Part shown: piece by piece, positions 16,743 through 45,758 of the stretch | Position numbering within the stretch: the stretch's first letter is position 1 | Layout: the number at the start of each line of letters is the position of its first letter | Source of the DNA: Trypethelium eluteriae | Lineage: Eukaryota | Direction: 5' to 3' | DNA: 64,000 nucleotides | NCBI GenBank assembly: GCA_051942245.1 | Contig: JAVECL010000019.1 | Coordinates: 1-64,000 of the forward strand | Translations under genes and position numbers: made by a program | Notes under the pieces: model-generated | The model's database searches: none | The model's input: only the letters and a program-made list of their open reading frames with translations | What the model was told of the DNA's origin: nothing

Positions 16743-17294
16743 CTTCGGCCTTCGCAATCCTGAGTGAGGGAGTCTTAATTCGGGATTCTTTATTTTATTA
16801 TCTTTTTTTTCCTTCTCTATTTCTCTATATTCCAAAAAGAGAGAATGAAGATTACGGTGCGCTTTGAGATTAGTGAATATGAAATTTCTTTGATCCTTCG
16901 CAACGAGATTTGGCAGTACAGTAGAGTATCAACCTTCGCGTTTGGAAAATGGCTACGGTTTATCAACTACCAACAAGCCAAAATCCCTTTACAAAGGAAT
17001 AGCACGGTACCAAAAAAGCGGACCCCGTGCATACGTACTAAAGTTTGTCGGCAGTTTCTACCTCACGGAACTGCCTTGTTACCCCGCATGGATGGATAAG
17101 TTGTGCTGCGACTTGAAGTCAAAAGGGCTCAAGTCCGGAAGCTACTGCTAGCTTCGGCAATCGAGAGGCATTAAGTAGCCGATCCAGTTGCACCTATGGA
17201 TGTATATCTACACGAAAGGTGGCATCTCAGAAAGTGTATCAGACTCTGCGCTTGAAGAATCAAATGCGTGTTGATACAGACACGGGTAATCTAA

Positions 17295-19044: not shown

Positions 19045-19279
19045 GGACACTCCGAAAGTAATACTCGACAACCTTGGGCGCTCTCGGCGCCTTGTCTCCG
19101 ATTAAAGTCAGTAATGTAAAGCCCGGTGCTCAAGTATCTACTTATACATCGCCCGCAATAGAAAGATCTTCAGAAATTCGTAGCCGCAAAATAAGCAAGA
19201 GTACTGGGATACAATCTGAACATGAAGTTGGATCGAAGAAGCTTTCCACGCAGGAGATGGAGTTTCGTCTAGTGGGTGT

Positions 19280-21301: not shown

Positions 21302-21683
21302 CCTGATTTACGAATTGATGATTGTTCTTAGCTCGAGTTCTCCGACAATGTCCACAAGACCTTGGGCGAGCGAATTGAAGATTAACCATCGCCAGCAATG
21401 CCGAGACTAAGTATTATACAGACATATAGAGAGTTACCTCCGCATTAGCTCATCCTGACCGATCCTCAAATCATCCTGGGCACGAGCTACGCGTTCTGGA
21501 ACAGTTTCCACAGACCTTGATCTCTGCCTAGCGCGTGGCAGCCCCATGGGGTTCTTTGCCGACGCTCCTTCGGCTCGGCAACGCTTTGCCTCATGAAGAC
21601 GATCTGCTTTTGTAGGTCTCGGGAAAGGCTTTCTTCGGCAAACACTAGGAACAGTGGGAAAGTTGGCGAAGCATAGTGATCGC

Positions 21684-21935
21684 CTCTCCAGGGAAGGAAA
21701 AACCGTCCGATGTTGACACAGACCACCTGCCCTTATCTTCTGCCCTATCTCCTCTCACCTCTCATTATTTTCATGTTTTTGCTGCCTGAAATGCCCAGGG
21801 AGATTATTTTCCGATATTAATAGAGCAGAAAGTCAAACATTTACTGTCAAATTCCAAAACATATGACTTGAGAGGTGTTTGTTGTTGTGTGGGTGGTTGG
21901 TGGCAATTTCGGTCGGTTTTCCCATCCCTGGAGAG
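21684..21935. repeat. 27-bp imperfect inverted repeat pair (24/27 identical) in the MFS/P450 bidirectional intergenic region, flanked by a 5-bp direct repeat ATCGC
   Basis: 21684-21710 CTCTCCAGGGAAGGAAAAACCGTCCGA versus reverse complement of 21909-21935 CTCTCCAGGGATGGGAAAACCGACCGA; ATCGC at 21679-21683 and 21936-21940. Confidence 0.8.
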
Positions 21936-22234
21936 ATCGCGTCTGGGGTCTTTTAACCGGCGAGACTAAAGCTTCCGGGGAGAAGATACCGAAGTTCTGC
22001 CGGCCGCCAGATGCATGTTTACCCCGCGCTCATCTGGCGACGCGAACCACTGGGGTCAGGTACCTGCACGCGACGTTGGTGAGCCTGTGGAACGGCAGAT
22101 ACTCTTCCGGAATTCTGACGGAACTGGTGACCCTCTGATCCATGTTGAAATGGGTGTTATTTCGAGAGCGAACGTGAGCAGTTCAAAGCAGACGAGGTAT
22201 TGTTTGTTCTCCCGCTCATTCTGCACTCGATACC

Positions 22235-24146
22235 ATGTTTACACAGCGCTCGACAGAGATAGACTTCGGAAACTTGCTGGCACGATTGCAGCTGCTCGTC
22301 AAGCGATTTGAGTTCACGACCCTCGTAGTATGGATCGCTCTTCTGATGAGCGGGTGGCTGGTGGTGGATTATGTACGAATGCTATGGCTTAGAGCAAGAA
22401 TGGTAACCAGTGATGCCACTTGATTCATCAGCCATCTTCTCGACCGCGCTGATTTCGAGGAAGCCACCAGGCCCCTTCCCTCTTCCTGTCGTCGGTAATA
22501 CCCATCTGCTCCCCGACAAGAAGCCGTGAGTCTCACAAATCTTCAGACTCTAGCCCCTCAATACTCAGTGCAAATAGATGGATCTACTTCGAGACCCTTT
22601 CTAAAACCTACAATTCGCCCCTCATCACCTTCTGGGTTGGTCGCCGCCCGACTATCTGGCTTAACGATGCCTGGACCGCGTCCGCCCTCCTCGATAAACG
22701 TGCTGCTATCTACTCCTCTCGACCGCGCATGGTCGTCTTCGCCGAGTTGGGCGCCGGCCAATCCAATCTCGTCAACATGTACTACGGTGACCGATGGAGG
22801 CTACATCGCAAACTCACCCACCTCGGTGTTGGGCTACAGCAGGTACGGAAGTATCGCGGTTTTCAGAACGACGAGTCGAAGATTGTGGCTTGGAAGATTT
22901 TGGAGCAGCCTGAGAAGTATGCAGAGCATTTTGAGCGATATGCTACCTCGGTCGTGAGCATTATTGGGTTTGGGAGACGAGTCGCATCAGAGGACGATCC
23001 AATCGTGACAGAGGTTATCAAGGTCATGCAACGGGCGGCGGAGCTGAACGTTCCAGGCAAAAGATTCCCCATGCTGATGGAGACGCTTCCCTTCTTGGCT
23101 CGCTTTCCAACGGCAATCGCCCCATGGAAGCATGGACTGGGCCGTAAACGTGGCATCAACTTTTTCTATGCCCTTGCTGAGGAAGCGAACGAGACTGAAG
23201 GACATGAAGACTCCTACATCAAAGCGATTTTCCGGGAAGGGCCCAAGTATGACCTTTCCATCGATGAAATCGCCTCCTTGTCAGGCAACTTGTTCGGTGC
23301 AGGAAGCGACACATCCAGCTCGACATTGATTACCTTTGTGCTTGCTTGTTGTGCGTTTCCTGAGACGCTACTGCATGCATGGGAGGAGCTCGACAAGGCC
23401 GTCGGCCCTTCGCACAGTCCGAATTGGGACGACCTCGAGCAACTGCCCTATGTCAAAGCATTCGTAAAGGAAGTCTTGAGGTGGAGGAGTGTTGCCATCA
23501 TTGGCGGGCAACCACACGCACCCATCAATGACGACACTTACAACGGCTATCACATTCCGAAAGGTCAGCGAGAGCTCTCCTGTCCTAGCGATTTGATTGA
23601 TCGCATACACTGACTTTATTCCAGGTACATGGGTCCAAGGCAACGTGTGGGCAATCCATCACCATGAACGCGAATTTCCCGATCCCGATCGCTTCAAACC
23701 TGAGCGGTTTCTGGGAGACGATTCGTGGACGAGGCCATTTCCGAATGAAAAGGGATACATGACTTTCGGCTGGGGGCGTCGCGCATGTTCTGGTCAAGGT
23801 CTCGCTGAACAAGGAACTCTGATTACTGTTGCACGATTGCTCTGGGCGTTCCGCATCGAAAAAGCGCTAGATAAGACAGGTCAAGAGATTCCGGTTGATA
23901 TCTTTGCGTACACGTGCGTATATCACGTCAGCGCTTGATCCATGCGGTAGCTAACACTTCCGTAGTGATGGACTCAACATGCGCCCACAGCCCTTTAAGG
24001 CACGATTCACGCCAAGAAGCGAGGAGATTCGAGCGACCATTGAGAGAGAAGGTAGACAAGCGCTGCAAGATTTGGCGGAATACGAAGGGGAGACTAATTA
24101 TCGGATGAGTACATTTTACCAGAATCCTACCCGGTCGAAGAAATGA
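22235..24146 (+). CDS. Cytochrome P450 monooxygenase
   Basis: N-terminal TM anchor, then PPGPFPLPVVGN, I-helix AGSDTS, EVLR, PERF and heme motif FGWGRRACSG. Four introns; stop 24144-24146. Confidence 0.95.
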
Positions 24147-24461: not shown

Positions 24462-25564
24462 TCAAGCATATGTTCCCTGAATCCTCATGTGCTGAAACTC
24501 GCCTGCAGTTACAAACTCCGAGGACACCTTTGCTCCGAGACCCGAGCCGTCCAGCAGAGGGCGCAGAACGGCTGTCCGATCAGGCTTTGCAAAATAAGCT
24601 ATTGAAAAGCGCTCTTCAACGACATCCCCCTTTCTTGCTTGTTCGTTACCTTGTGGTAATTCAGGTAGATGAACACGATGTCGTGCGCTACAGAGACCAG
24701 TCCATTTCTGCAGGCAATCTCCCGCATTCAGGATGCACTCGTACGGGCCTCCGCTCGCGATGCCGACGAAGCTCCCACTCCCGGGCGGTGATTCGACCTC
24801 AAGACCTCCTACGCGGTCTTGGAACAGGAGCGTGATGCTCCCAAAGTCGGTGTGCGCTGCAATCCGCGTCGAGGTAGAGAATGCCTCTTGCGGTACGGCT
24901 GGGTAGTGGGTTAAGCGTAGCTCATTGTGCTGAGCTGCGTGGAGCTGGCTTAGTGTCTGTGTTGGAAGGCCCAGCCCTATGGAAATAGCCTCGAGAATGA
25001 GCAGTTGTGTGCGGTAACATACTTCGAAGAATTCGACGAAGGTGGGCTCAAAAGTGTCACAGACCCCAGTAGGTGGCCAGATGTTGCTGTAGAGCTCGTC
25101 TCGTTCAGACCCAATGTCATATGACTCCTATCCGAAGAGTTTGGTAGCTGTGTCAGAGACCAGAAGTGGGGTTTGTAGCAGACCTTCATGTCTTTCAGAA
25201 GAGGAAGTTGGGATGACTTGTCCTCACGCCCATAGTTCGAGATGGTGGAGACATTCTCTAAACCTACCGCGCTGAAGCCTCGGTGTGGGTTTGCTGTAGG
25301 AGGATGAGGAGACTTTAATTTCTGGTTTAATGGTAGTTGGAAGAAATGCCGACTCTGGTCGATTCATTAGCGAATAGCACCTTTCGTCGGTTCACTTCGA
25401 CTTACCGTTGCAAATGCCTTGTCAATTGTCGAAGGCTCGATGCCGTGATTTACGAGTCTCACGAAGCCGCGTTGTCTGAGGCCTGACACGAGTTTGCGGC
25501 AAAATTGATCACGCTTTGCTACATTGCCGCTTTGATAATTCGCAAAGTCAAGTCGCTCAAACAT
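24462..25564 (-). CDS. 2-oxoglutarate/Fe(II)-dependent dioxygenase, IPNS/DIOX_N family (HtyE/GloF proline-hydroxylase-like)
   Basis: Three exons translated by hand without disruption: GFVRLVNHGI, HPPTANPHRGFS, KESYDIG...NIWP, ELRLTHYP, RIAAHTDFGSITLLFQD..GGLEV, HRV, RFSIAYF. HxD...H triad and RxS intact. The largest exon is absent from the ORF track. Confidence 0.92.
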
Positions 25565-26181
25565 CCCTTGAAAAATCGTCAAAATGCCGCGAAGCGCTCC
25601 CAAAGTCCAGGAAGTCAGACTCTCCACACCGAGATGCCATCATAAGTTCGGCGTGACTGCTCGTCTTATAGTCTCCTTCCTTCGTATCGGGATCCTCACC
25701 AATCTTGTCTCACTAAGGCAGGGGCCGTCTCGGTGATCCTTCAAAAAATTTTGGACTCTATCGCACGGTGCACTTTGCCAAGGGTCTTCGTTCCGTGGCT
25801 CTAAGTCCTACTCAGCGAGGCGGTGAAGCTCGGATGTCAGCCGGTGAGGCCAGTGCCTAAGCGTTCTCTTTGATATAATAAAAGTAGTTCTTGCGAGTCG
25901 GAGGCACGATCGGAATAGTAATCCATATCGTACTTGACCAGACTCGCGGTGGAATGACTGCCACTCAATGGCCCTCCAAGCGACTCACATTTTATTCTGA
26001 ATACAAATCATCTCGCGAGTTCGCCATGAGCTTTGCGATGCTCGGCTCACGAAATTACGTTACAAAAGTGCCAGGCTGGGTACAAAGAAATTTGTCCTCA
26101 GAATTTCTCTTTTTAGTGCGGACAAGTGCCAGGTCAGATCATGGCAGCACTAGACTACCCCCAGCAAGCTTCTACGTATTA

Positions 26182-29100
26182 CTAGTGCTCACACAAAATT
26201 GTTCGCAGTCGAAGTAAAAACTCTCGCACTGTCCCCTCGTCAATAAGTTTCCTGTTGCCTTCAAATTCTAGCTCCAGCTTCCCACTTCGCGGTGTAGCGT
26301 AAATCTCTGGGCGATTGCGCGGAAGTAGGTCTCTTTCATAGACGGATACATTGCTCTGCCATCCCGCAAACGTGAACTCTGTATCCTCTTCTTGCTGATA
26401 AGCAGTACGCCACCCAAAGTCTTGCACTTCCTTCGGCCACTCAGTGCAACTTTTGATGATTTCAACCATTCCCATGGCTTCATGAACCGAGTCTTGTATA
26501 AACTGGGGCTGTAACTGCATTGCGATGTCACTCATCGAATCACCCGCTTCTATGCGCAGTCTGACAGGGACTTCCGTTAGACAAGGGCCGACGACTTTTT
26601 GAAGCCGGGTTGGAAGCATTGAACGGCCCGTAACCAAGCGACCAAATACTACCTCATCTCGTTGAAATTGTTGCGACAGGGCCAGAGCACAAGCAGCATG
26701 GAAAACTGTCGCAGGAGAGACTCCATCGAACCATCGTACACTGGGCATTTCAATGGTTTCCTTCATTGTCAAGCGATCTCCTGTGTTATAAGCTTGACCT
26801 GTCGGGTCGCCGGTACTCGACTCCGGAAATGGGCAGCCGTTCAGCCTTGAAGCCCAATACTGCATGCTGTCATTTTTCTTGGTCTCATTGAAAGCGATCA
26901 CCTCACCAAAAGCAGGTGGTATTGGTAGACTCTCTTCACTGTAAATAGACGACAAACTTTTTAGGACGAGTCCAAAGCTGAACCCATCAAATTGAGCGTG
27001 AGATAGCCTGAAAATGAGCCTGTGCTTTCCGGAGTGATGCTTGATAGCCATGAAACGAATGAATGAATGGCCCAATTTTCGATCCCTTTTGAGATCTTCC
27101 TCGCAGATAGTATTCGTGAAGGAGGACGCGGTTCCGTCATCGACTTCGAAAAGGTCAAAGGTCGGCTTAAAATCCGCTATCAGTACTTGCAAAAAGCCGT
27201 AATCTGCTGGTATGAAGACTGTATGAAGGATGTCGAAGTATTTCACTAGTTCTTCACATGCCCGCTTAAGCCTCGCGAAGTCTATATCGCTAGACAGGTC
27301 AAGGATCCAGTGCGGAAATCTGTTAGGCGGATCTTGTAGCGCATCTAGGATCGCGCGTTCCTGGAAATCCGTCGTCGGAAAAACATTCTTGATACTTCCC
27401 ACGTCTTGATCAAGAAAAGGTTGCACAGATTCCTGCAGAAATATTTCTACATCACTCACTTTGAGTAACGAGAAAGGCGGCAATGCCTGTGAAGACTCCT
27501 TCTCTCCAGTGACTTCCGTCACTAGCTGTGCCAACTGAGAGAGACGAGGCGCTTTGAAGATATCAGCGACGGTTAGCAATAGCTGTTGGTCCCGTGCGGC
27601 TGCCACCAAACGCATAGCTGCAATAGACTCTCCTCCAATCCTCAGAAAGCTACTATCAGCACTAATGCTCGAAGCCTCGATCCCGAGGACCGCGGACCAC
27701 AAGATTTGTAACCGCTTCTCCATCATCGTGGATGGTGCGCGGCGCTCTTTACTTCGTGGTTGCAGTTCAGCAAGACGCTCCAGTGTCTTTGAACCTCCCA
27801 ACTCTCGCAAGGCTCGTCTGTCTGTTTTGTTGGTCGTCGTCATAGGAATTTTATCAATAGGAATGTATGCGCCTGGGACCATATACTGCGGTAAATGCTC
27901 CGAAAGGCTCTCCTCAAGGTCCTCCACAAGTCGCCCAAGCCTGGACCGGATATCTGAATTTGACCGATTTCCATTTCTCGCGAGACTTAAGAACACGGCA
28001 AGGATAGGGTGCTCGCTATTTTGTGGCATGATAATCTCTGCAGCCACGCCATCGCAATAGCTGGACTCCCTCAGACTTGCTCGGACATGGTGTTCAACTT
28101 CTTCCAATTCTATTCGCTGCCCTCGTAGCTTGATCAATGTGTCTTTGCGGCCGATGAATTGCAAGGACCCGTCTGTGTTGTATTTCAGGAGATCCCCTGT
28201 CTTGTAAAGCCTGCCATGTCGGCCTGGATGTCCTTCCAAGCCACGGGTGAGCCATGGCGGGTCATGAATGAATGCTGCTGCTGTTTTGGCCTCGTCGTCA
28301 AAATAACCCTGACTAACAGTTGGTCCTTCAATTAAGAGCTCTCCAATGGCGCCAATGGCAGCCAGATGATTTGGACGATCAGGCTGGACAAGCCATGTCA
28401 GAGCACCAAATGAATGGCCAACATGGTTGTTGGGTGTCCTGGGGCCAAGAGGGACTATTGAAAGAGCTTGCGCGCATTCTGCTGGGCCATAGATCCCAAT
28501 GATTGTCTCTGCTTGTGCCCAGCGTGCGACCTCGGCACTTTGGATCGGCTCGCCTCCCATCGCCAATGTTCTAATACCCGGCATGGCAGATGGGTCCAAT
28601 GACCGAGCAACTGAGGGTGTGAAGTACACGTAATCGGCGTTCATACGGTTGAGGGAACTAGGAATGTCATTTTTGCGCTCCCATTCCGATGGTATGCAAA
28701 GGCATCCGCCGCATATCAAAGTATTTAAGGTGTTGGACCAGGAAACGTCAAAATTGTATGAGACGAAGTCGAAAACGCGAGTTCCCCGTTTGACATGTAG
28801 GGCTTTTGCCTGATGCATTGCTGCGGATGAGAAGTTTTCATGCGTCGTTACAACACCCTTAGGAGTGCCCGTCGATCCAGAGGTGAAGACGATATACAAG
28901 ATATCTAATGGCGAAACTTTGGGTAACTGAATCTTGATCGGGCTTTGGCAAGGTTGCAACGGGAGAGTTGTCTTATCGGCCACGACGACATAGGAATTGG
29001 ATATCCGTGTTGCTAGTGTTTCGTTGGCGACAGAAGAGATAATTAGCCTTGGATTGACTTGTTTGACTATAGAACGTAGGCGTGCTTCTGGCTGGGTTGA

Positions 29101-32100
29101 GTCCATTGCTAGACAAGCCGCACCCGATTTCATTGTTGCTAATGCAGCTACTGGCATCCACAGTGACTTTTCGAAGCACAAGGGGATAACAGTCCCGGGG
29201 CCGGCACCAAGAGTAGCCAGTTGAGAAGCTAAGCGGTCAGAAAGATCATCCAGTTCTGCATATGATAGATTTCCGTCCCACGAGCATATGGCCGGCGCCT
29301 GAGGTTGTTGCAATACGGTGTCCCTGATCGAATCGTGCACGCATGCTTGGGTAGGTCTCGGAACAGAAGAATTCCAGCCCCAAAGTTCTGTAATGTCCTG
29401 CGTGCTAACCGTCTCAATGTCTTCAACCAAGTGAGTCGAAGACATACATACTTGACGGAGAACTTGTTCAAACTGGGAGGCAATGCGTTCCATTTGCACT
29501 ACATCAACAACCTTCGAATCAAAGCTTATCTCTATTGATAGATCACTTGTATGTCTGAGCTGGCACATTATCATTACCGCGTGGGGATTGAAGGTATCGA
29601 GTCCATCGGTGGAAACTTTTAGTTCGGAATGGGTCCGGAATGGTCCACCGCTGTGATTCACGTGCGCACCATCTCCGGCTGGCTGAACGACAAGAAGAGT
29701 ATTGAAATGACCGCTTGTTTTGGTATTCGTATCGGTGCGGCAAGCATCAAGCAATACCGTGTGCTCATAAGGGATCATGTCAATGGACTGTTTCTGTAAG
29801 TTCTCCAGAAGGTCGTTGACGGTCATTTTTGGGTTGAACTTTACTCGCACGGGAAGTGCACTTATGAGAGGCGCGATCATGCGCTCAATGCCCGCTATTG
29901 GCGCCTGCCGTCCCGTTACCAGCGCCCCGAAGACTACATCTTTGGAATCGGTATAGCATGCGGACAAGATCGACCAAGCTGTTCTTATTACGGTTGACGC
30001 TGTGACGTCTCGATCGGGCCATCGCATATCATTTATATTGCGCTTCACCGTACTGTCGGCCTTTGGTTGATAATCCTGATAAGGTAGCATCGGAAAAGGA
30101 ACAGCCTCAGAGTCTGAGAATTGATGGCGCCAGAACTCTCTGGCATTTTCCTTATCAGTTCTTACGATATGCTTCAAAAAGGCCTGGAAAGGTGCCACGG
30201 GGTATTTATTGATCTCGCCCATGTAGGAATTCGAGACTTCTTCAAGAAGCAAATCTAAAGAATGCCCATCATATATTGCGTGATGTTGAGTAAGAACACA
30301 GTAGCGTCGTCCAGTTTCTGATTGTTCAACAATCGCTAGTCGAGTAAGACGGGAGGAGAGACCCATTGGTCTTCTTTGATCGTATTCGAGATACGCCTGC
30401 AGGCTTGGGCTGGTTTGCCATTCTAATTGTTCGCCCAGCTGTACCTGTATCAACCCTTCGATGGGAATATCAACTATCCTAGAGCGAAGAATCGGCGCAG
30501 TCGATCGGCTGATGTCTTCCCATGCTTGCTTCAGGCGATCAATGTCGAGCTCGTCTCGTAGCTCCAAGAGAAGTCTTGCAATATAATCCCCAGGCCGTTT
30601 CACTGTCACTGAAAGAAGTGATTTTTGGACATCAGTACAAGGGAATGCGTCTTCAATGTCTGATGCCTGTGTACCGCATAGCCTAGATATATGTGCAATA
30701 CTCTTGTCCTTGATATTTGCCATCCGTAATAACGAGAACGGCTCCACCGTTTCTTCCTCCACCAAAGTGTCGGAGGGTCGAGATCGGGATGTGATTGCTT
30801 TTGCCATTTCGGAAAGTCGCGGCGAACGCAGAATATGTTGAACTGTTAGGTCAATACTTTGACTACGAGCTAGAGCAGCTAACCGCATGGCAGCGATGGA
30901 ATCACCACCCAAGCGTAGAAAACCGCTGTTGGCGCCGATGGTTTCGATAGGAAGACCTAGCACTACTGCCCATAACTGTCGCAGGCAGTGTTCTGCATCT
31001 GTGGACACTGGCACCTCTGCCGCAGCTTCAGTTGCACCAGCCAGTTGTTCAATTGTCAGATCTGCGCCTATTTGCCGTAGGTGTCTTCTGTCGATTTTTC
31101 CACTCGCGGTTAATGGGACAGCTTCAATCGGTATATAAGCACTCGGCACCATGGATAAAGGAAGTCTTTCTGGCAAGGCAATTTGAAGATGGTTCACAAG
31201 CTCGTCCAACTGAGTAGTCGACTGTGACTCATGCTGTATAAAGACAACAAGGGTATCCTTCTCCGTCGCTTTTGGGACAACAATGTCGGCGATCATAGTT
31301 GGCACTGAGTGCGTACGTCCTAGGCATTGTTGAACATGGTGCTCTACTTCGGAAAGTTCGACCCTCTGCCCTCGAAGCTTGGTCTGTCTGTCTTTTCTTC
31401 CGAGGAAGAGCAATGTGCCATCGGCCGGATTGTATTTTACGAGGTCGCCCGTCCTGTACACACGGCCGCCCCTTCCAGGAAGTGCACCATCAGGAGAGCC
31501 TTCCATCAGCCAGGTTGGGTTCTCTAGGAAAGCTGACTCTGTCTTTTCTTCGTCATGTAGATACCCTGCACCCACAAGCGGTCCCTCTAAACAAAGCTCT
31601 CCGATGGTACCTATAGGGCATAATCGCGTATTTGACAGTGGGTCTATTACCCAAGCTAAGACTCCTACTCCAGTGCCTATGGACAGCTGACGGGGTAATG
31701 TGCTTGGAACGCTCCAATACGTCGCCATTGCGGAGCACTCCGTTGGCCCGTATACTACAGCGACATTGGCAGATGAGACCCAGGGAGCAAGGTCATCTGT
31801 TTTCACTTCTTCACCACCAAGGTAGACACTCCGAAGCGTTGGTATTTTGGTAGGGTCAATGAGTCGCGCAGTAGCGGGCGTCAGAAAAATGCTGGTGGTC
31901 CGAAATCTTCGAATGCTGTCAGTTAAGTTATTTTTCCGCTCTTCTTCACTGGGAATGCACAAGGTCCCGCCGGCACAAAGAACATGTAAAGCACTCCAGT
32001 GGGCTGCATCAAACGCGTAAGATGAGAAGTCGTACATGCGCGAACTTCTATCCAATTGGAGAACGTCGCGCTGATGTGATACGGCACTGCTGAAGTTCCG

Positions 32101-35100
32101 ATGTTGTAACAAGCAGCCCTTAGGAGACCCTGTGCTTCCAGAAGTGAAAATAGCGAACAAGAGATCGGCAGATCCGACATTGGGTAGGGGGTCTTCACGC
32201 TTGTCAGTAACTGCAGCGTTGCAGCTACGCAAGAGGTCCGTCTCTGCACCTAACAGCAAGACATTTGCGACCAGTCTTGAGGACAATCGTTTATTGGAGG
32301 GAGAAGATAGGATAATTCGGGGCTCGACTTGGTCCAATGTGGCCCCAAGACGGGATATCGGAAGAGTCGGATCCAGAAAGAGCCCGGCGCCACCAGCTTT
32401 CATTACGCTCAGAAAAGCGACAGGCATCCAGAGTGATTTTTCAAAACATAGCGGAACGATCATGTTCCGATCAACACCATATCCGATCAACCGATGAGCA
32501 ATGGCACTTGAAAATTCATCTAGTTGGCTGTAAGTGAGTTCACCATCCCAGGCAGAGATCGCCACTGCATCGGGATGAGCTTGAGCAATATTGGTGATCA
32601 TGTCATGCGCACAAACTTCAATACTTTTAGGCAATCTGGCATTCCACTTCCACACTTGATCGAGGTCCTGGTGTGTCATCATGTTGACGTCGCGAAGGCA
32701 TACTGTGTCAAGGTCCCGAGAACAGAGGTTCCTCAACAGCTGCTCGAAATGCTGCACCAAATTCTGTATGGTAGCTTGGCCGATCACCTTAGAGTCGAAG
32801 CTAAGCTCTAACTTCAATTGTCCCGCTTGAACTGTGCACACAGCCAGCAGCGCATATGTGTTAAAGGCATGAAAGCGGTGTTCTTCCTTGTGGCGCTTAC
32901 TTGGGCCAACCTCAGAAACAAATAATCCACTGTCCATCATGTCTGGTTGCTCCGGCTGCACGACCAACATTGTCTGGAACTGGCACGCAGTTTTCGCTTC
33001 CTCACTGCATCGACTTATCTTCGACAGCCCTGTTTGCTCGTATGGAATCATCTTGGTCGCCTGGTCCTGTAGAGCTTGTAGAAACTGAACGATGTTTCTT
33101 CCATTGTCAATTTTGACTCGGATTGGCAGAGCAGATATAGTCGGACCAGCGATTCGTTCGATCCCTACAGTGGGAGCCTTACGGCCCGAGACAATTGTTC
33201 CAAATACTGTATCCGAGAGATTTGTGTACCGTGAACATAGTATGGCCCAGGCCCCCCGAACTACTGTTGAGGGTGTAGAGTCGTCCGTTCGCCACGTTAT
33301 CCCGTCTACCATATGAGTATAGGACGAGTCTGCTTTCGGTTTGAACGAGCTAGAGGGCAAAGCTGGGAATTGAGTTGTTTCCAAGCCATCGAACTGAGCT
33401 TTCCAAAATTCGCCTTCTGCATCCCAATGTTGACTGCTGACATATTCAATGAATGATCGGAAAGGGAAGAGGCGGAGAGGTGTTTCACCGTTGTAATAAC
33501 GTTCCAGCACCTCAAATATAATGGGTGTAGTAAGTCCATCGTAAATCGAATGATGCAGCGTCAATGCAAAAACATGGGAGCGTTCGCCTCCAGGTCCACT
33601 TTCGGGGTCTCGGAAAAGGCCGCACCTCATGAGAGGAGACCCAAGTACCATCGGAAGCTCCTCTTGTTTGCTCAGATAATCTTCAATACTTTCAGCTTCC
33701 ATCCAACATGAGGTGTGTCGAATGACTGCTTGGACTAGGCCTTGAGCAGGTAGGTCAATGATGCGGGTTCGCAGGATTGGGATGACCGAAACAACTTTTT
33801 CCCAAGCCTCTTTCAGTCGTCTAACGTCCACGGTGGAAGCCAGTTTTAGCATGTTGTAACCGACATAATCGTCCTTCCGCGTCCCAGTCAAGGCTAATAG
33901 GCCCTCTTGTAGCGGTGTACAAGGATATAGGTCTTCGATAGTATCCTTCTCGACGTTGCAAAGGGATGCTGCATGCTGACGTGCTTGATCGACGTTGACT
34001 TTCGGATTGAGGAGTAAGAAAGATTTAGACGACTCCTCATCTACCTCATCTTGATTCCTTAGTAATTTCGCCATATTCTTGAGTTTTGGGAATTGAAAAA
34101 TATCGGCCACCTTCAGCGACAGGCCTTGCTGCCGAGCTGCGCCCACCAAACGCATGGCCTGAATTGAGTCACCCAGTCGGAGAAAGCTATCACTCGTTGA
34201 GATTTTCTCGGCGTCCACTCGAAGGATACAAGACCACAGTTCCCGTAATGTTCTCTCAGCCGTAGTCGCAGGCTCTCGTTTCCCATCGGTCCCCTGTTGC
34301 TGCGGTTGAAATGAAGCTCCAATCTCTCGGAGGCGGATTCGGTCCTTCTTGCCTGTCGAGGTCATCGGAATGCTGGCAACTGGTATGTAGTAGGAAGGAA
34401 TAGCAAATGCAGGTAAAGACGCCTTGAGTCCCTCATTCATCCGAGCTGTCAGACTTTCGAACTCATCTTGTGACGCCGTTTCCGCCTCGGCAAAACTAAT
34501 GAAAGCCACGAGACATGCGTTGTTGCCATCCTTGGGGACTATGAGTTCAGCCACCACATCAATGTTCGCTCTTCTCAAGAGGCGCCGTACATGAAACTCC
34601 ACTTCCTCAGGCGCAACAAGCTGGCCTCGAACCTTGAATAATGCGTCTTTCCTCCCCAAGAAGATGAGTCTGCCACTTGAATCGTATCTGGCTAGGTCGC
34701 CGGTGCGATAAATCTGGCCGTGCCTGCCGGGAGATCCTTCGCGTCGTCCGCACAAGAGAAAATCCGGATCTTTGCAGAAAGAGCGATTGCTTAATTCTGG
34801 ATTGCCTTAATATTTTTCAGCGCATGCCGGCCCTTCGAGTGCGATTTCGCCTATCGCACCAAATGGAACAAGCTTGTTATGGTTTTTAGGATTGACAAGC
34901 CAGCAAAAAGTTGACGGACTGGAGTTAGATCGTCCAATCATACCGTTATGCCACCCTTCTTCGTCAGCAGCGCAGAATGCCGCTGCAGAACATTCACATG
35001 GGCCATACCAGTTGAGGATGCGACTTCTGCCTCTCCACCGGTCGACTTCCTCTTGCACGAGGTTCTCCCCACCCAAAAAAAGCGTGGACAGGCTAGGAAC

Positions 35101-38100
35101 TTCCTGAGGGCTGAGAAGTTTTGCAGTTGACGGGGTAAGACATGCAAGATTGCAGTCAAAACGGTTGATGGCGGCCGTCACCCCGTCCAATCTCTCAGAC
35201 TCGGACGGAATACACAGACAAGCGCTGTTTGCAAGCGTAGACATCGTCTCAATAGTACAGGCATCGAAGTCGTGTGATGTAAACTGAAAGGTCCTTGATG
35301 ATGTACTCAGCGCAGCAACTTCTTTGTGTGCGTTCATATTAGCTGCAAGAGTTCCATGAGTCCATAAAATCCTTTTCGGTTCGCCTGTGCTACCAGATGA
35401 GACCAATATCGCGGCTGGTTCATTTATAGACATTTCTGGCAGGCTCGTGCGAATGCTATCCTCAATCGGCATTTCCATGAGCTGACTTATCGTGAAGCAA
35501 CGAATGTATTTGGTCACAATCTTCGAACGCATCTCTGAGGCTACTGCGAGGTGAGGACCAACGCTGCTGAAGATGCTACTCATTCGGCGCTCTGGCATAT
35601 GCACTGACTGTAATAAGCATACGCCTCCTGCTTTGAGCACCGCCAGCTGTGCAATGGGGGTCCATTTTGACTTTTCCAGGCACAAAGCGATGATCGAACC
35701 TCGCGTCACACCCAGGCTAATCAAATTCTGACAGAAGATATCAGAAAGCTCGTCAACCTCTCGATACGAGAATTTCCCATCCCAGGCATCTACTGCTATC
35801 GATCCCGGAGTTTTCCTGGCTGCGGAGTTAACTTGGTCTTGCGCACACATCTGAGGAGCCTGACAAGGCTTTGCATTCTCGCTCCAGAAAAAGTCGAGGT
35901 CAATGTCGCTGGCAGTGTAAATATCGCCAAGCTTCCTGCTCTCAGCATCTGCTATGCACATCTGATGAAGAACAGTCTCGAATTGGTGCGCTATTCGTTG
36001 AATCTGCCTACTTTGGATAAGCCTGTTGTCAAAACTGATGTGCAGCTGCAGGCCTGAAGTCTTTAGCTCACATATCAGCATCAAAGCATATGTGTTGAAA
36101 GGATCAGTGCCTCGCGTATCAATATTCGAGGAGAAACTTCGGGCCTTAAATAGTAAGCTATCCTCTTGTAAGCTTTTGCCTTGAGCCACCGGTTGTACGA
36201 CGAGTAACGTCTGGAAAAGGCCACTTCCCGGGTCACCGATAGCACGTTGAATTTTCGACAAACCGTAGTGTTCATATGGTATCATGCTCACCGATTGATG
36301 CTGAATACGTTCCTGAAAATTTCTGATTGTCTCGTCCCAATCGATTGAGATGGCCACGGGCACCGTAGATATGGTAGGACCGACGCAGTCCTCGATACCT
36401 TTCATGTCTGCTTGTCGCCCGCTGACAGTGGCACCGAATATAACATCGTCAGAATCTGTGTATTGAGCAGAAAGAACGGCCCAAGTGGAGCGTATGATTG
36501 TCGACGGTGTCATCCCAGAATGCGGCCAATCTAATGATATACCGTGCGACAGATCTTCATTCGCTTGTGGATCATAAGTTGGAGAGGGAACGGCTGGAAA
36601 CTGCCTAAATTCCAAGTTTGGAATTTGTTGCTTCCAGAACTTTGATGCCGCTTCGGGGTCAACATTCGTTGAATACTGAATAAAATTCTGGAAAGGCGTG
36701 ACATCCATGCCTCCTTGTTCGAGGTACTTCGACTCCAACTCATCCAACATCATCCTCAACGAGCTTCCGTCGTAAATGCAGTGATGAATTGTCAGGATGA
36801 ACCTATTGTCGATAATAGCAGCACGGCAAAGATCCGTACCTAGTCCCATCTCCTCGCGCTCATCCTCTTTCAAATACGCGTCTACGTTGTCGCCAGTCCG
36901 CCATGAAACATTGACGAGAATGACCTGGAACAATCCCAGACCAGAGTAGTCAATGATTCGAGTTCTCAGGATGGCCAGTTTCTCGGTCGTAGCTCGCCAT
37001 GCCTTTTCTAGCCGTTCAGGATCCACACCAGTCTGAAGCTCGAGGACACTTCGTGATACATATTGGCCCGGCCTCCTCACAGTCATTGCGAGGAGACCTT
37101 CTTGAAGAGCCGTGCAAGGATACATGTCGATAACGTGAGAATGTGGAACCTGGCAAACTTCGGCTGCATACAATCGAGCTTCAGTATGAGCAATGTCCAG
37201 GTCGAGAAGTATGAAAGGAGGCACTCCTTGCTGGGGAGAGTTGACGTCTTGCTTAACTACTTCAGCCAATTTATCTAGTTGTGGGGTCTGGAATACTTGC
37301 GCCACGGTCAGCGAAAGCCCTTGGGCATAGGCTGACGCAACAAGACGCATCGCGCTGATTGAGTCGCCTCCTAGGCGCAGGAAGTTGTCGCCAGCATGTA
37401 TAGTATCTCTCTCGATCCCGATTATTTCTGCCCAAAGGTTTTGTAATACTTTCTCCATGTAAGTGGAGGGTTTTCTCAGCTCACGACGAGATGGTTGTAT
37501 CTTTGCCAGCTGGTCAAGCGTCAGCGAGCTTCCAATCTGCCGTAGGCGCTGCCTGTCAACTTTTCCGGTGTAACCTGTTGGGATTTTTAGAATCGGAATA
37601 TAGAGCTTGGGAATCATGTACGGTGGTAAGACATCGGAAAGGCTTCTTTCAAGATCGTCCACCGGGAATATTCGTTTCATAAAGTGATCAAGTTCCTTTG
37701 CAGAGCCAGCTAAAACAGCAGGGGGGCTGACGAAGAGAGTTAAAACTTCATTTTCGCTTTTCTGCGGCCGGAAGATCTCTGCTACTATTGTTGTGTCGGT
37801 TGTCTTCGATAAGAAGCAGTGAACTTGGTGCTCAATTTCGCTCAGTTCGACTCTCTGCCCACGTAATTTTCTTTGGAAGTCATCACTACGTCCAATGAAA
37901 ATTATACTACCTTTAGAATCGTACTTCACAAGATCCCCAGTTTTATATATTGGCCTATTTCGTCCTGATATCACATCGCGACCGTGATGAAGCCAGCGTG
38001 GGAAGATAAAAGGGTTTTCCGGTGATGTCTGGCTGTCGCCACCAATATAACCATTTGCAAGAATTGGACCCTCAATGCAGAGTTCTGCAATCGTACCAAT

Positions 38101-41100
38101 AGGGGCCAGAAAGTTGTGATCTTTCGGATCAACGAGCCAACTCGAGCCGTATATGCTGCGACCAATCATCCCTGGCTTCCAAGTCTCGTCTTCGACTGTG
38201 CACACGGTCGCACAAGATGCTTCTGCTGGTCCGTACCAATTGTACAAATGGTGGAGAGTGCTTGTCCATCTGGTTGCAGGATCTTGTAGTAGCTTTTCGC
38301 CTGTGAATACCAGAGTTTTCAATGAGGGGACATCTTTGGGAAGGATCGTGTTGGCAACTGACGGTGTAAGACAAATCCAATTGGCCTGCATCTCATGAAT
38401 GGCTTCAGCTAGGTGGTCAGACCTGTGATCCTCTGATGGAACGCACAAGCAGCCACCAGCGACTAGCGTCGCAAGGGCCTCCAAGCTGCTCACATCAAAA
38501 TCATATGCTGAGAACTGGAACACTCTACTACCAGTAGTGATCTTGAAAGCCGATACAGCTGCATGGACATTGCTTGATAAACTTGCGTGACTCCAGGAAA
38601 TGCTTTTCGGAGTACCTGTCGACCCAGAAGTGAAAATAATTATAGCAGGGTCGGCCGAAACTGGCTGGGCTAACCGGGTCTTCTCGGTGCCATCTACTCT
38701 ATCTGGTTCGACAAGTTCAGAGATGTGGAAGACTGGTACGAACCCATAAAATGCGGACGACTCGGGTATGCTTGATGTTATGACTAGCTTAGGTCCTAGG
38801 GCATGGAGAACCTTATGAGCACGATGAATAGAAGCGGATACAGACATCGGCAGTGCTGTGGCCCCGGCTTTGAGGATCGCTAGTATTGAGACTGTCATCC
38901 AGGCTGACTTTTCAAAGACCAATGGAATGATGCTCCCAGTGCCAACACCTTTGTCTCGCATCTTAGCCGCGAGAGATGTTGATAAGCGTCCCAATTGGTA
39001 ATAGGTAATTTTCATATCCCAAGCCGAGACGGCAAGAACGTCTGGTTGAGCGAGCGATTTGGTGTCGATCCAGTCGATGACAGGATTCAAGGTCGGTCGA
39101 GGAATATGTCTATTCCACTCCGAAATCTCTACAAGGTCTTGCTCACTGAGAGCTGAAACATGACACAATTTCATATTTCTGCCTTCTTCAGTACAAAACT
39201 GCCTCAGTAAAAGCTCCAGCTGGTGAGCAATACGTCGAACCTGTATGTCTTGAATTGCTCCGGAATCGAAATTTATTCTAAGCTTGAGACCTGATTCTTC
39301 CAATTCGCAGATAATCATCATTGCATAGGAATTGAACATGCCCAAACTTTTTGTCTGCTCGAGTATAAGGTCATCTCCCGAATCTGTACAACGCCGAGAG
39401 AAAAGGCCTCCTTGCTGTTGGCTGGATCCCTGTACAGCAGGCTGAACAACGAGTAAGAGCTGAAACTGACTGGCTTCCTGGGTATCTTGAGTGATGTGCT
39501 GGATTCTTTGTAGGCCAAATTGCTCGAAGTCTGTCATTTCTAATGCTTGGCTTTGTATTTGTTCGTGTAAATCTTCTACGGTCTGGTCCCATCCGAATTT
39601 AATTCGTACTGGTACTGTCGCGATGGTGGGCCCCGCCATTCGCTCTATACCAGTGACAGACGCTTGTCTACCGCTTATAGTTGTCCCAAATTTGACATCG
39701 TCCGAATTGGTGTACAATGCTAATAGCATTGCAGTTGCTGATCTTATAATTGATGAGGCAGTAATGTTCGTGGATGGCCATTGTAGTCCGGAAATTGGGT
39801 GATAGAAATCCATGTTAATTCCACCATTGGAACTTGGAGATGGGAAGACTGTTGCCCGTGACCCTGACAATTGCCTTTCCCAGAATTCTGTAGCTTTGGG
39901 CACATCTATGGCCATTGAATATCTAATGAACGATTGTAAGGATACAAGAGGCCAAAACGTTGTCTGTTCAGCACGATAAGCTTGCGCAATAGTATCCAGG
40001 ATGAGCATCGTACACCAGCCGTCATGGATAGCATGATGCATTTCCAAATAGAATAGACGTCGATCACCATTGAGAAGACCTGCTCGACATAGCGGTGTTC
40101 CGAGGCCCATTCCTCCTCTTTGACTCAGTGAAGCGCCATCAGGAAAGTGTGCATGTAATGTTACTGGAGAGCTCAGAACCACGTTCACAAGACCATTTCG
40201 CGAGAGTTCAATGATGCGAGTACGAAGGATGGATATCTGCTTGACCGTGGCTTCCCAAGCCTTTTGGAACTTTCCAACATCAAGTTCATGAGGCAACCGG
40301 AAGACTACCTTTGATATGTAGTCTCCTGCCCTTCTGGAAGTCATTGCAAGCATTCCTTGCTGAAGCGGAGTGCAGGGATATACGTCCTCGATCTCAGTGA
40401 TTTCAACGCCGCAAAGCCTTGCAGCTTCTTGGCATACTGCGAGCTTCTCTTTCTTTCCATTCAACAGGGAAAATGGCGCAGGAGCTTCGTCATGCTGTGA
40501 TTTAGCCTGAGCTCTAGTGATATTGGCCAGGTCGCTCAGCTGTGGTGTTCTGAAGATATCTGCCGCCGTAAGCATTAGGCTCTTCTCGCGCGCTGCTGCA
40601 ACCAAACATACAGCAGCTACTGAGTCGCCTCCTAACCGGAAGAAACTATCTGTTGTGCTGATACGAGCGGGACTCAAATCCAATACTCGTGCCCAGAGCT
40701 GCCGAAGATGATGTTCGATCTCGTTGGAGGGTTTGCGATACTCGGCACTGGTCATGATCGACGACTGTAAGCTGTTCAGATCTTCCCGAGAAAGACCATT
40801 CCCAATCTCTCGAAGTCGCCGTCGATCTACCTTACCAGTGGCAGCAAGCGGGATCTCTTCGACAGGAAGGTAAAAACTAGGGACCATGAAGCTCGGTAAC
40901 ACTTTAGAAAGCTTCTGCGAAAGACCGTCTATTAGCGGCTTGGCTCGTTCCCTCTCGTGTTCTTTTACGTTTACGAACAGCACGAGCGAGGGGCTTCCAT
41001 TGCCGGCAGGATGGACGACATCTGCGATAATCGGGAGCTCATCATCCAAGCAGGCGCGCGCATGATATTCGACATCACCGATCTCGACTCGTTGACCCCT

Positions 41101-42444
41101 GATCTTGAGTTGCGACGCATCTTTCCGGCCAATGAAAAGGAGCTTCCCATCTGTTTTATACTTTACAAGGTCCCCAGTCTTGTAAAGTCTGCCTCGCCTA
41201 CCAGCGAACTTACTGCTGCCGGTCAATAGCCAAGGAGGATCGTGGATAAATGCTGTGGATGTCTGTTCTGGATTGGATAAGTAACCTTGGCCAACAAGTG
41301 GCCCTTCTAGATACAGCTCCCCTACAGCTCCCCTCGAAACGAGTTTGTCGGTATCGTGTGGATGAACGATCCAGGTACCAAAGCCAACTCCTACACCGAT
41401 ATCCGGGCGCTCGTCTTTTGTAGAAGGAAGTAGTGAGAAAGCACATTTAAAAGTGCATTCAGTCGGTCCATAAGTATTCAGAAGCCTCACATGCCTAGCC
41501 CAGATCAAGTTTTCGCGGTAAGGCATTTCACCGCTCAGAAGCACTGTGCGAAGAGTGGACGGGATCGGACTGATAGTCCGTAGAACTGTTGGGGTGACGT
41601 TGATCAAGGACGCGTTGAATACCTGTATTGTTGAAGAAAGATCGTTCATCATGTCTTGTTCTGATGCGATACAGATACAGCCACCGGCGCATATGGTGTG
41701 CAAGAAGTTACTCCACGCTACGTCAAAGGAGTATGGTGCAAAGTCCAAGACGCGCGACTCGCAGCAAAAGCCGAGCTTCTTACCTTGGTATTCAACAGCG
41801 CTCCTTACATTGGCATGGCTGATGCAGGCTCCTTTGGGCAGGCCCGTGGTGCCAGATGTGAAGGAAATATAAGCCGTGTCTAAAGGCGAGACCACAGGGA
41901 GTCGGGATGAGTGCTCTGGGAGATGAAGCAATGTTTCGTCAAGTTTGAATACTGGCACGTCCGCCAGAAGCGAAGCCCTCTCGTAATTAGCGGTGGATGA
42001 GATGATTACTCCCGGCTGCGCCTGCTGAACAACGGATCGTAGCCTAGCATCTGGTTGAGCAGGATCGAGGGCAATGGCAGCACATCCTGACTTTATGACG
42101 CCTAGCATTGCAACAGGAGTCCATCTCGTCTTCTCAAAACAGATGGGGACGTTCGACTTCGGAGTAATGCCCAGATCAATAAGTTGCTGAGCGACCCGAT
42201 TCGCTAGAGCATCTAGCTCAAGATAGGTCAATTGGCCATCCCAGGCATCTACTGCCAGCGCTGAAGGCTGACTTCCAGCTATCTCTGCGATCAAGCTGTG
42301 GACACAACCATGGACTGGGTCCGGTACAGAAGAATTCCAGTTCCATATTAGGTCGAGATCCTCCTGACTAGCACTGACAGAGACCGTGGGCTCCTCTGAA
42401 GAGAATTCGGCTGTATTAGCTAGGAGGTCATTGAGTACGTGCAT
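26182..42444 (-). CDS. Five-module non-ribosomal peptide synthetase (A-T-C-A-T-C-A-T-C-A-T-C-A-T-CT), interrupted by one in-frame TAA at 34807-34809
   Basis: ORFs 34807-42444 and 26182-34755 are in the same frame (..GPACAEKY*GNPELSNRSFCKDPDFL..). Five A domains (TSG/SSGxTGxPK, YGPxE, YK/RTGD), five carrier motifs (GGDS, GGDS, LGDS, GGDS, GGES), four HHxxxDG C domains and a terminal SHAQFDG CT-type domain. No E or MT domain seen. 5421 codons including both stops. Confidence 0.95.
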
Positions 42445-42720: not shown

Positions 42721-43226
42721 CTGGTGCTCATCTCCTGCTTAGTCATTGAAGTCGGAAGATTGGGCGCGGGATCGTTGCGTCAGCGCCCCGATACTCTACT
42801 GTACTGTCTCACCAGCCAATTGCTGCGTCCTCTGCATCAACCTTAGCAAAACGAACATATTTCTCTTACATCCATACACCATGCAACTCAGGTAGCATTC
42901 ATCTCGCCCGCGTTATCCGCACTATCCAAGGTTTCACTATCTATGGCTTTACCTGCGGTATCAGTGGTTTATTGATCATCGAAAGGCAATTCTCTGAATG
43001 GATGAAGGAACTCAAGGTTGGGTGAATTACCTTGAGCACTGACCTGCAAGTTATCCTGGTCTAGGTCTGTGTCAATGATCCATCTCCGTCGCAAGTCTTG
43101 CAAACCACATCGTTCTTTAGTCGTCGAACTCTATCTAGCTCATGTGAAGGATTGATAGAACCTCATTTTCTGATCAGACCTTGTCGACTGCAAAGATATA
43201 GTTCGAACACATTGGTCCGATATCCC

Positions 43227-45758
43227 ATGGATCCGGTGACTGCGATCGGCTTGGCAACCAACGTTGCTCAACTAGTGGAAATCTCGTGGAAAATCGTGTC
43301 AAAGAGCCATGAAATCTATAGACACGGCGCTCTGCCAGAGCATCGGGAAACTAAAGCGGTGACCACAGACCTGCAAAATGTGAATAATAAGCTACTCGAA
43401 TTTTGGTACAGAGCTGAAAAGGATAAAACCACGACTGACGACGATGAGTCTCTCCGTCGGCTATGCGAGTCTTCAAATCAGATCGCGAACGTGCTGATCA
43501 AACGACTCAGAACTCTTGAGCCTGGTGATGAGTACCGTAGCTGGAAGAGCCTACGGCAGGCACTCAAGTCAGTGTGGCTTAAAAGCGAGATTGACGAAAC
43601 CGCCGCCCGATTGCAGGCTTATCGTACACAGTTGAACACGCGCATCTTAATGTCATTGAATGACAAGATCGACCGCCTTGATGGAAATTCCAAGGGCATC
43701 ATGACCAACCTCGCCGAGAATCGAGCTCTTCTAAACGTCAATCAAGAGATTCACACCCAATACCTCACAAAGTTAATCACCGCTCAACGTGATAAGACAC
43801 GGGGCATACTTGCTGATCTGGCCAAGGTCAACCGAGCTCCCAGGTCTTTAGTACCTCACCCAATGGAGGCGATTTCGCAGCCTAAGGACTATGACCCGCG
43901 CCTTGTAGTACTTGAGGCGGCGAGTGAGCGGAATATTGCGACGCTACGGCGCGCTTTGCGGGAAGATCCCTCAGCTATCTTTGCTTCCACTGATTCTGGT
44001 CAGACCGCACTTCACTTTGCAGCCAGTGTCGGCGATGCGGACTTGGTAGCGTATCTGATCCGCAACGGTGCAAGAATCAATCCTGATGATGACGAGGGCA
44101 GGATCCCTCTCCATTGCGATGTGGAATCCGGATCAGATACCGTTGTACGGGCGTTAATTGCAAAAGGGGCCGACGTGTCGGCCAAAGACGCTCAAGGGCA
44201 CACTCCTCGGGATCTATGCAGTCCTTCGACTCTTCTGGAGTGGACCGTCACTCATGGTGCTCATATCGAAACAAAGGATAATGAAGGATGCTCGGCGCTC
44301 TTTCACTTCACCGAGCAAGGCGATGTCGAAGCTGTCTGCACGCTGCTAGACCAGGATGCTGATAAGGAAACCATTGGCAGATTGAATCGAACCCCGCTAT
44401 TAGAAGCAGCCAGACAAGGTCACGTAGAGATCGCCCAGCTCCTCCTCGCACGAGGCGCAGATGTGCATCAAGTTGACCACATCAACGAAACCGCGCTAGT
44501 GATCGCTGGCTGGCAGGGTCACACGCGAGTGGGCGAGCTACTCCTCGACCATGGTGCTGACATCGAGGCAACTACCATACACGGCGATACAGCTCTAGCT
44601 GGATGCTGCAACAATGGCCACGTCGGGATGGGGCTAATGCTCCTACGACGCGGGGCTCAGATAGAGCGACACAACTTGGCCGGTTATGCTCCACTCCATC
44701 AGGCCGCCAAGCATGGTCACCCGTCCCTAGTCGAAGACATTCTTGATCGGGGTGGCAATGTAAACGTCCTCAATAGCCGCATCCATTGGACACCACTGGC
44801 TGAAGCATGCGAGCACGGATATGTCAGCGTTGTTGAGTTGCTGCTTGCCCGTGGCGCTGCGACTGGGACACGAACTGGAGAAGACGGCAAAACCGCTCTC
44901 ATGCGGGCGGCTGAGAGGGGCTATATACGGGTCATACAATGCTTAATGGATCATGACGACGCATTCAACATTGAGGACTCAGACCAGGAAGGGAGAACAG
45001 CTCTTTTCTGGGCAGTTATTGCCAATCGCATCGACACCGTCCAGGAATTACTCCATTTGGGTGCAAATATCGAGGTTCAGGATCTTTGGCGTGCGACATC
45101 GCTCTGTCGGGCCTGCCAATATGCTCATTATGAGATTGCTGAGCTCCTCGTCCATGCAGGTGCTAACGTGAATGCCTTCAATTCGCATGCGTGGCATCCG
45201 CTACATGAAGTCAGCGCGCGTGGCAATGCCACAATGGCTAAGCTCTTATTGGATTGTGGTGCAGATCCCAATTGCCGCAATGATCGACTTTATACACCTC
45301 TGAACCTCGCGGCACAAGGACGCCACCCAGCTGTTGTGCGTGTTCTCCTAGAAAGTGATCGTACTGAAGTCAATGCCGCAAACAAGGATGGTTGGACTGC
45401 ATTAGCAGAGGCTGGCCATCATCGGCAAACTGAAATAACGCGCCATCTGCTTGAACACGGTGCTGACGCTAATTCTCGTGACTCCCACGACTACACGCCC
45501 CTCTTGCGGGCCGCTCAAAGCGGCCACCTCCCAGCTGTCATACTTCTTCTGGATCAAGGGAAGGCCACCGTTGATGTTGTGAATACAGATGGATGGACAG
45601 CGCTCGCAGAAGCCAGCTGGCATGGCCATTCCGATATGGTGAAAGCGTTGCTTGCCAGGGGAGCAAGCCAGGACATACGCAACAACAAGCGCCAGTCACC
45701 TCGAGACCTTGCTCAAATAAAACGCCACTCACAAGTCATTACTCTACTGGATGGTTAG
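43227..45758 (+). CDS. Fungal NLR-type N-terminal helical domain (SesA/HeLo-like) fused to a long ankyrin-repeat array
   Basis: MDPVTAIGLATNVAQLVEISWKIV...WKSLRQALKSVWLKSEIDE...L is the typical start of fungal NACHT proteins. It is followed by roughly 17-18 G.T(A/P)L..A....G repeats. Single exon; no P-loop. Confidence 0.9.
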   Translation: MDPVTAIGLATNVAQLVEISWKIVSKSHEIYRHGALPEHRETKAVTTDLQNVNNKLLEFWYRAEKDKTTTDDDESLRRLCESSNQIANVLIKRLRTLEPGDEYRSWKSLRQALKSVWLKSEIDETAARLQAYRTQLNTRILMSLNDKIDRLDGNSKGIMTNLAENRALLNVNQEIHTQYLTKLITAQRDKTRGILADLAKVNRAPRSLVPHPMEAISQPKDYDPRLVVLEAASERNIATLRRALREDPSAIFASTDSGQTALHFAASVGDADLVAYLIRNGARINPDDDEGRIPLHCDVESGSDTVVRALIAKGADVSAKDAQGHTPRDLCSPSTLLEWTVTHGAHIETKDNEGCSALFHFTEQGDVEAVCTLLDQDADKETIGRLNRTPLLEAARQGHVEIAQLLLARGADVHQVDHINETALVIAGWQGHTRVGELLLDHGADIEATTIHGDTALAGCCNNGHVGMGLMLLRRGAQIERHNLAGYAPLHQAAKHGHPSLVEDILDRGGNVNVLNSRIHWTPLAEACEHGYVSVVELLLARGAATGTRTGEDGKTALMRAAERGYIRVIQCLMDHDDAFNIEDSDQEGRTALFWAVIANRIDTVQELLHLGANIEVQDLWRATSLCRACQYAHYEIAELLVHAGANVNAFNSHAWHPLHEVSARGNATMAKLLLDCGADPNCRNDRLYTPLNLAAQGRHPAVVRVLLESDRTEVNAANKDGWTALAEAGHHRQTEITRHLLEHGADANSRDSHDYTPLLRAAQSGHLPAVILLLDQGKATVDVVNTDGWTALAEASWHGHSDMVKALLARGASQDIRNNKRQSPRDLAQIKRHSQVITLLDG

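Follow-up and report, generated by a model that had tools for sequence, protein, structure and literature searches.

The first 64,000 nucleotides of contig JAVECL010000019.1 of Trypethelium eluteriae, a lichen-forming fungus, constitute the window analysed here. They contain a large nonribosomal peptide synthetase (NRPS) gene followed by a dioxygenase gene in the same orientation, and the locus raises the question of which product this pair serves. The initial annotation regarded the NRPS as an orphan. This view is not borne out, as MbjA, the NRPS linked to MBJ-0110, is a characterised match at orthologue level. With a probability of about 0.8, the locus is the T. eluteriae orthologue of the mbj core of Penicillium expansum, with an interrupted NRPS allele; such an interrupted member of the MbjA/MBJ-0110 family in T. 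eluteriae is what is new here. The locus is thereby tied to a product known since 2016 and linked to its gene in 2026, and the "orphan" label is removed.

In P. expansum, deletion of PEXP_055140 (mbjA) abolishes MBJ-0110, Val-MBJ-0110 and 3-hydroxy-MBJ-0110 (Amir Rawa et al. 2026, PMC13036780; this and what follows according to excerpts of that paper). MBJ-0110 is a lactone-closed pentadepsipeptide of Ile, Pip, Pro, Asp and 4-hydroxy-Pip; it and its analogues contain plain L-Pro, and 4-hydroxy-Pip is the ring-closing residue in all three. A linear hydrolysis product of MBJ-0110 is also reported. The neighbouring gene PEXP_055150 encodes a 2OG-Fe(II) dioxygenase, proposed by the authors as a putative Pip hydroxylase, and its role in Ile hydroxylation is left open. 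The A-domain specificities were predicted with PARAS, and 30 mbjA homologues were found in 19 species, with one copy per genome in that set. In the excerpt of a review (PMC6017592), MBJ-0110 stands in a table without an activity entry. Other publications on mbjA or the MBJ-0110 cluster were not found among the matches listed. Two candidate locus names were discarded: Aspergillus oryzae AO090001000009 is listed as the WYK-1 cluster, and no link of A. flavus AFLA_066720 to the MbjA-clade proteins emerged. KGO44059.1 (P0405, 5403 aa) was identified by eye as PEXP_055140 from the printed first 400 residues and the length of 5403. It lies on a 193-kb contig compatible with the listed mbjA region, whereas P0204, which has the same length, lies on a 34-kb contig that does not fit.

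The T. eluteriae NRPS gene is an intron-free frame of 5420 codons on the minus strand, running from an ATG at 42444 to a stop at 26182. It is divided as follows, with the A-domain pocket codes compared to those of MbjA:

26182..42444, minus strand: five-module NRPS gene orthologous to mbjA, without introns, 5420 codons, a single in-frame stop
39136..42309, minus strand: module 1 (A1-T1-C1, approximate limits), code DVSNLSTFKK, 9/10 as in MbjA, putatively Asp
35884..39081, minus strand: module 2 (A2-T2-C2, approximate), code DVLCVTWCAK, 7/10 as in MbjA, putatively Pro
32653..35850, minus strand: module 3 (A3-T3-C3, approximate), code DAICFGWAAK, 5/10 as in MbjA, putatively Pip or a variant residue; the stop lies inside
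34807..34809, minus strand: premature TAA, codon 2546, within A3, the sole internal stop of the NRPS frame
29383..32595, minus strand: module 4 (A4-T4-C4, approximate), code DAWFYGVAMK, 8/10 as in MbjA, putatively Ile/Val; C4 putatively ester-forming
27526..29334, minus strand: module 5, A5-T5 (approximate), code DVSYAGIQAK, 10/10 as in MbjA, putatively 4-hydroxypipecolate
26185..27378, minus strand: terminal CT domain (approximate), SHAQFDG

Pfam detects AMP-binding, AMP-binding_C, PP-binding and Condensation domains only, arranged as four A-T-C modules followed by A-T-CT (five domains each of the A, T and C types). It finds no methyltransferase domain, and neither a starter C nor an E domain is present, since all five C-type domains are already accounted for. 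Pfam and motifs thus agree with the architecture given in the initial annotation, including its CT domain of the SHxxxDG type. The motif SHAQFDG is present in 45 of the 57 aligned rows of the MbjA-clade alignment. All five T serines, all five A10 lysines and the C motifs are intact.

Orthology with MbjA is evident at the level of the whole protein and of its single domains. Both NRPSs are 53.7% identical in a single BLAST alignment of 5444 columns, compared with 38.2% for an unrelated NRPS of similar length (P0243, 5404 aa) that served as a control. Each of the 15 domains matches its positional MbjA counterpart best, and the A domains are 47-65% identical to their own counterparts versus 34-43% to the second-best module. 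In a tree of 73 A-domain windows, every module falls into a module-specific clade with MbjA (7/7 rows, support 0.93-1.0; Bogoriella was left out of this count, as its first module was missed by the pattern), and A2 and A3 form sister clades (support 1.0). The A5 code is identical in 35 of the 57 aligned rows. The A2 and A3 codes differ from those of MbjA at 3 and 5 of 10 positions, and the A3 code varies widely across the family. None of six pocket-code strings sought in the literature was found there.

The locus thus has in common with MbjA/PEXP_055150 five A domains in the same architecture, modules that are orthologous and collinear one by one, no epimerase, a terminal C domain, an overall identity of 54%, the A5 code and an adjacent 2OG/Fe(II) dioxygenase of the same clade, to which PEXP_055150 probably belongs, judged from the mbjA neighbours in other Penicillium species. 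It differs from the P. expansum locus in the premature stop, in its host, which is a Dothideomycete, and in its flanking genes, which show no sign of cluster membership.

The dioxygenase gene was modelled with three exons:

25406..25564, minus strand: dioxygenase exon 1 (three-exon model)
25184..25354, minus strand: dioxygenase exon 2 (three-exon model)
24462..25127, minus strand: dioxygenase exon 3 (three-exon model), encoding the iron ligands HxD...H and the RxS motif

Its ATG at 25564 lies 617 bp past the NRPS stop and its reading frame is intact, as the initial annotation had stated for a co-oriented 2OG/Fe(II) dioxygenase at this distance. The product of 331 aa is identical to NCBI Q9157_000799 (T. 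eluteriae) and shares 330 of 331 residues with the enzyme of Viridothelium virens. It contains all that is expected of an IPNS-like Fe/2OG dioxygenase: the DIOX_N and 2OG-FeII_Oxy domains, the HxD...H triad (H202-T-D204, H260) and RxS (R283-F-S). The pattern HPPxxNPHRG/KES.D.G...Y.NIW noted earlier is found as HPPTANPHRG, KESYDIG and YSNIW.

HtyE/GloF, PpzD and BuaE are proline hydroxylases, and UcsF is an amino-acid oxygenase. The T. eluteriae enzyme shares the domain architecture expected of these proteins, but its clade is distinct and none of the named rows of the tree is HtyE, GloF or PpzD. In this quick tree of 102 rows, the clade comprises 34 rows (SH-aLRT 100, long stem), and 25 of the 33 other rows adjoin an mbjA homologue or share a contig with one. 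The enzyme is 61-64% identical to four Penicillium neighbours of mbjA orthologues (consecutive accessions), compared with about 43-44% for the nearest rows tested outside the clade. One clade member is automatically annotated as buaE. In the PDB, the top match is to thymine dioxygenase (E 7e-44), followed by UcsF (5e-40); since thymine dioxygenase ranks just above UcsF, similarity alone does not name the substrate. A search of the ESM Atlas returned generic Fe2OG clusters only.

Whether the two genes are conserved together, a check proposed in the initial annotation, was assessed with module 5 plus the CT domain as the query. Among the best 120 of 989 scored candidates, the MbjA clade consists mostly of NRPSs of 5,300-5,500 residues with 51-68% identity, compared with 32-46% for other NRPSs. 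The 52 named NCBI records among these 120 were compared with the dioxygenase matches. In 30 of them, a dioxygenase of the same clade is adjacent or on the same contig. In 13 records, the locus tags or accessions of NRPS and dioxygenase follow each other directly or nearly so (Xylogone, Trichoderma viride, T. virens, Penicillium freii, P. paradoxum, P. robsamsonii, P. longicatenatum, Aspergillus minisclerotigenes, A. hancockii, Cladobotryum, Pyricularia oryzae, Anthostomella and Gnomoniopsis); 17 more have both on an equal-sized contig, which was counted as the same contig. Both genes occur in the species, in different strains, in another four records, and the pair of P. expansum (1/52) is taken from the excerpts of PMC13036780. 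For 17 of the 52, no dioxygenase was found among the matches listed; this is weak evidence, because the search covers only 90% cluster representatives of 121-387 aa. A metagenome scan for synteny yielded 204 pattern matches that led to two loci, neither with an NRPS. The range extends over Eurotio-, Sordario-, Leotio-, Dothideo- and Lecanoromycetes, in the last of these with the NRPS only so far. The NRPS and the dioxygenase form the conserved core of the pathway, and the MbjA family is much wider than reported. The association of the dioxygenase with mbjA in distantly related fungi supports the published proposal of ring-closing hydroxypipecolate synthesis. Compared with the excerpts of PMC13036780, the conserved pair outside Penicillium, the wider range and the prediction of a module order are additions.

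The uninterrupted full-length frame expected of the MbjA family is not found in the T. eluteriae assembly. The TAA falls into the part of A3 that separates motifs A6 and A7, and on its account the NRPS as assembled cannot yield a full-length protein. The initial annotation merely hinted at it by the word "repaired". In all 56 aligned orthologues (56/56), the column in question is occupied by L, V, I or M, and an intron or frameshift was rejected because these orthologues align gap-free across the site. A long-dead pseudogene is not supported either. The NRPS deviates at 5 of 568 otherwise invariant columns; among the 56 orthologues, 15 have a higher count, 4 an equal one and 37 a lower one. 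In a second individual (public DNA run X1), a single contig spans the entire stretch; it shows 125 differences and zero coding indels. The pN/pS of the NRPS in this comparison is 0.38 (21 non-synonymous and 17 synonymous differences, p = 0.003), based on the 38 NRPS differences among the 40 of 125 that are listed (up to 33713), all downstream of the stop. The invariant-column count and this pN/pS imply that selection acted on the gene until recent times.

The stop is accordingly a young or strain-specific mutation, a polymorphism or an assembly error. It is rather probably a real lesion, and the NRPS allele is probably inactive through recent loss. The less likely reading holds that the loss is simulated by an error of assembly or base calling, or by a single allele of a mixed thallus, and that the pathway is active in the organism. 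It gains from the TAA being the sole lesion across 16.3 kb of a gene with intact T serines, A10 lysines and C motifs, without surplus decay and with purifying selection on the listed differences, and from the label MAG carried by the assembly record. It is weakened by the 120 matches listed, in which neither T. eluteriae nor V. virens is represented by a near-identical full-length NRPS, although top rank would be expected for one; this absence is itself weak evidence, as gene models may be split or missing. The T. eluteriae assembly also has only one copy of the region: no second mbjA copy was found in the genome, the next best match being 36% identical. An exact sequence look-up of both NRPS halves gave no match in the collection, and no RNA run carrying the stretch was among the matches listed. 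On account of the TAA, the locus is filed as a broken allele of the MbjA family rather than a working member, and being interrupted it is a poor expression target.

Another large NRPS with a 6574-residue frame is located elsewhere in the same genome (C52:41957-63322); it is at most 36% identical to module 5.

The cyclic pentapeptide with hydroxylated residues suggested initially can be retained in part. The kinship with MBJ-0110 supports a cyclic five-residue product with a hydroxylated residue, but not hydroxyproline: since MBJ-0110 carries 4-hydroxypipecolate in a lactone, a depsipeptide is expected and hydroxyproline supply is not the best reading of the dioxygenase. The depsipeptide made by an intact allele would resemble MBJ-0110, though module 3 might contribute another residue. 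For this purpose, the dioxygenase would hydroxylate L-pipecolate at C4 to 4-hydroxy-L-pipecolate, and the NRPS would load five residues and close the ring with one ester through the pipecolate hydroxyl. Pipecolate would be supplied by genes elsewhere in the genome; no pipecolate-forming P5C reductase was found near the locus, and the two matches in the genome are on contigs C293 and C173.

Hydroxypipecolate rather than hydroxyproline is the likely product of the dioxygenase. FoPip4H-type L-pipecolate trans-4-hydroxylases, which are fungal Fe/2OG enzymes, make 4-hydroxypipecolate (PMC9951290, in excerpt) and thus catalyse what the MBJ-0110 structure requires; they are likened to the T. eluteriae enzyme by reaction alone. 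It is quite improbable that the dioxygenase acts elsewhere, by hydroxylating Pro or by oxidising Ile/Leu, in the manner of UcsF or as required for 3-hydroxy-MBJ-0110. Proline closely resembles pipecolate, UcsF is among the three best PDB matches, and the excerpts of PMC13036780 leave room for Ile hydroxylation. However, the unmodified L-Pro and the ring-closing 4-hydroxy-Pip of all three MBJ-0110 forms described there speak against such a role, and the P450 right behind the dioxygenase in P. vulpinum is an alternative candidate for Ile hydroxylation.

Regarding the module order, the A1 pocket contains a conserved Lys and the A5 pocket is polar (Ser, Tyr, Gln). DAWF-type codes belong to aliphatic Leu/Val/Ile A domains, and the A4 code is of this type. 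From the NMR atom numbering in the excerpts of PMC13036780, the ring order is read as hydroxy-Pip, beta-Asp, Pro, Pip, Ile, with the Ile ester to the hydroxyl. Two module orders are compatible with this ring, and Asp-Pro-Pip-Ile-hydroxy-Pip is moderately favoured, as judged from the A domains: the sister relationship of A2 and A3 is what a Pro and a Pip module would show, and the pockets of A1, A4 and A5 point the same way. It is rather doubtful that modules 1 to 5 instead load hydroxy-Pip, Asp, Pro, Pip and Ile, with CT closing a macrolactone and C4 forming an ordinary amide. Such an order needs no unusual internal C domain, and the linear hydrolysis product in the excerpts of PMC13036780, taken at face value, suggests it. 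Yet Pro and Pip are a better match than Asp and Pro for the sister clades A2 and A3, the Lys of A1 suits Asp, the A4 code resembles the aliphatic type, and the polar A5 pocket does not suit Ile.

With the favoured Asp-first order, the ester would be made by C4 and the ring closed by CT as a lactam. As C4 would then acylate the ring hydroxyl of hydroxypipecolyl-T5 and not its amine, chain growth would require the hydroxylase. The hydroxyl is needed for the ring in either order, which explains the tight linkage of NRPS and dioxygenase. No literature on hydroxypipecolic acid in combination with ester-forming condensation domains was found among the matches listed. The complete scheme, a minimal two-gene pathway of mbjA and dioxygenase that extends far beyond 19 species and makes Asp(beta-linked)-Pro-Pip-Ile-(O)-4-hydroxy-Pip with a C4 ester, a CT lactam and an essential hydroxylase, has roughly even odds. 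The pocket codes yield an order of modules that can be tested and that includes an unusual ester formation within the chain. If it is true, the variable A3 and A4 codes and the changed A5 code of some lichen homologues would indicate a family of undescribed analogues.

The changed A5 code, mostly DISHVGIQAK, is that of a Teloschistales/Physcia lichen sub-lineage of mbjA homologues (P0226, P0238, P0244, P0248, P0263, P0284, P0203-P0225). No named dioxygenase of this sub-lineage was found among the matches listed, and its A5 code suggests that it may make a different product.

Several genes flank the pair in T. eluteriae. A convergent P450 gene at 22.4-24 kb (Q9157_000798) is unsupported as a cluster member: its family is very common (663 matches), and its homologues in A. 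caelatus, A. filifer and A. karnatakaensis are on other contigs than the NRPS. The Xylogone homologue shares a 9-Mb contig with the NRPS, which says little. Beside the dioxygenase, the region 13969-24000 of the window contains methyltransferase, SDR, FAD monooxygenase, sugar-transporter-family and P450 genes, which may form a catabolic group of their own. A frame of 897 residues with many ankyrin repeats at 43065-45758 (plus strand) is oriented divergently to the NRPS start. At 46400-53500, a gene for a family-2 (heme-thiolate) peroxidase lies close to two GMC oxidoreductase genes, the second of which was recognised by eye. What we take, by eye, to be a pogo/Fot1-type transposase remnant is located at 55683-56270 (minus strand).

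Three relatives show further peculiarities. P. freii has two mbjA homologues, ACN42_g4754 and ACN42_g9776 (P0187, P0415), the former of which groups with Aspergillus section Flavi and A. wentii. The NRPS model of A. filifer (P0241) runs into a pyrroline-5-carboxylate reductase domain, which implies that a gene of this type immediately follows the NRPS in that species; it is a possible local source of pipecolate. The dioxygenase model of P. vulpinum (P0455) is fused to a P450 fragment, which implies that Penicillium has a P450 gene next to the dioxygenase; this P450 is a candidate for forming the 3-hydroxy-Ile of 3-hydroxy-MBJ-0110.
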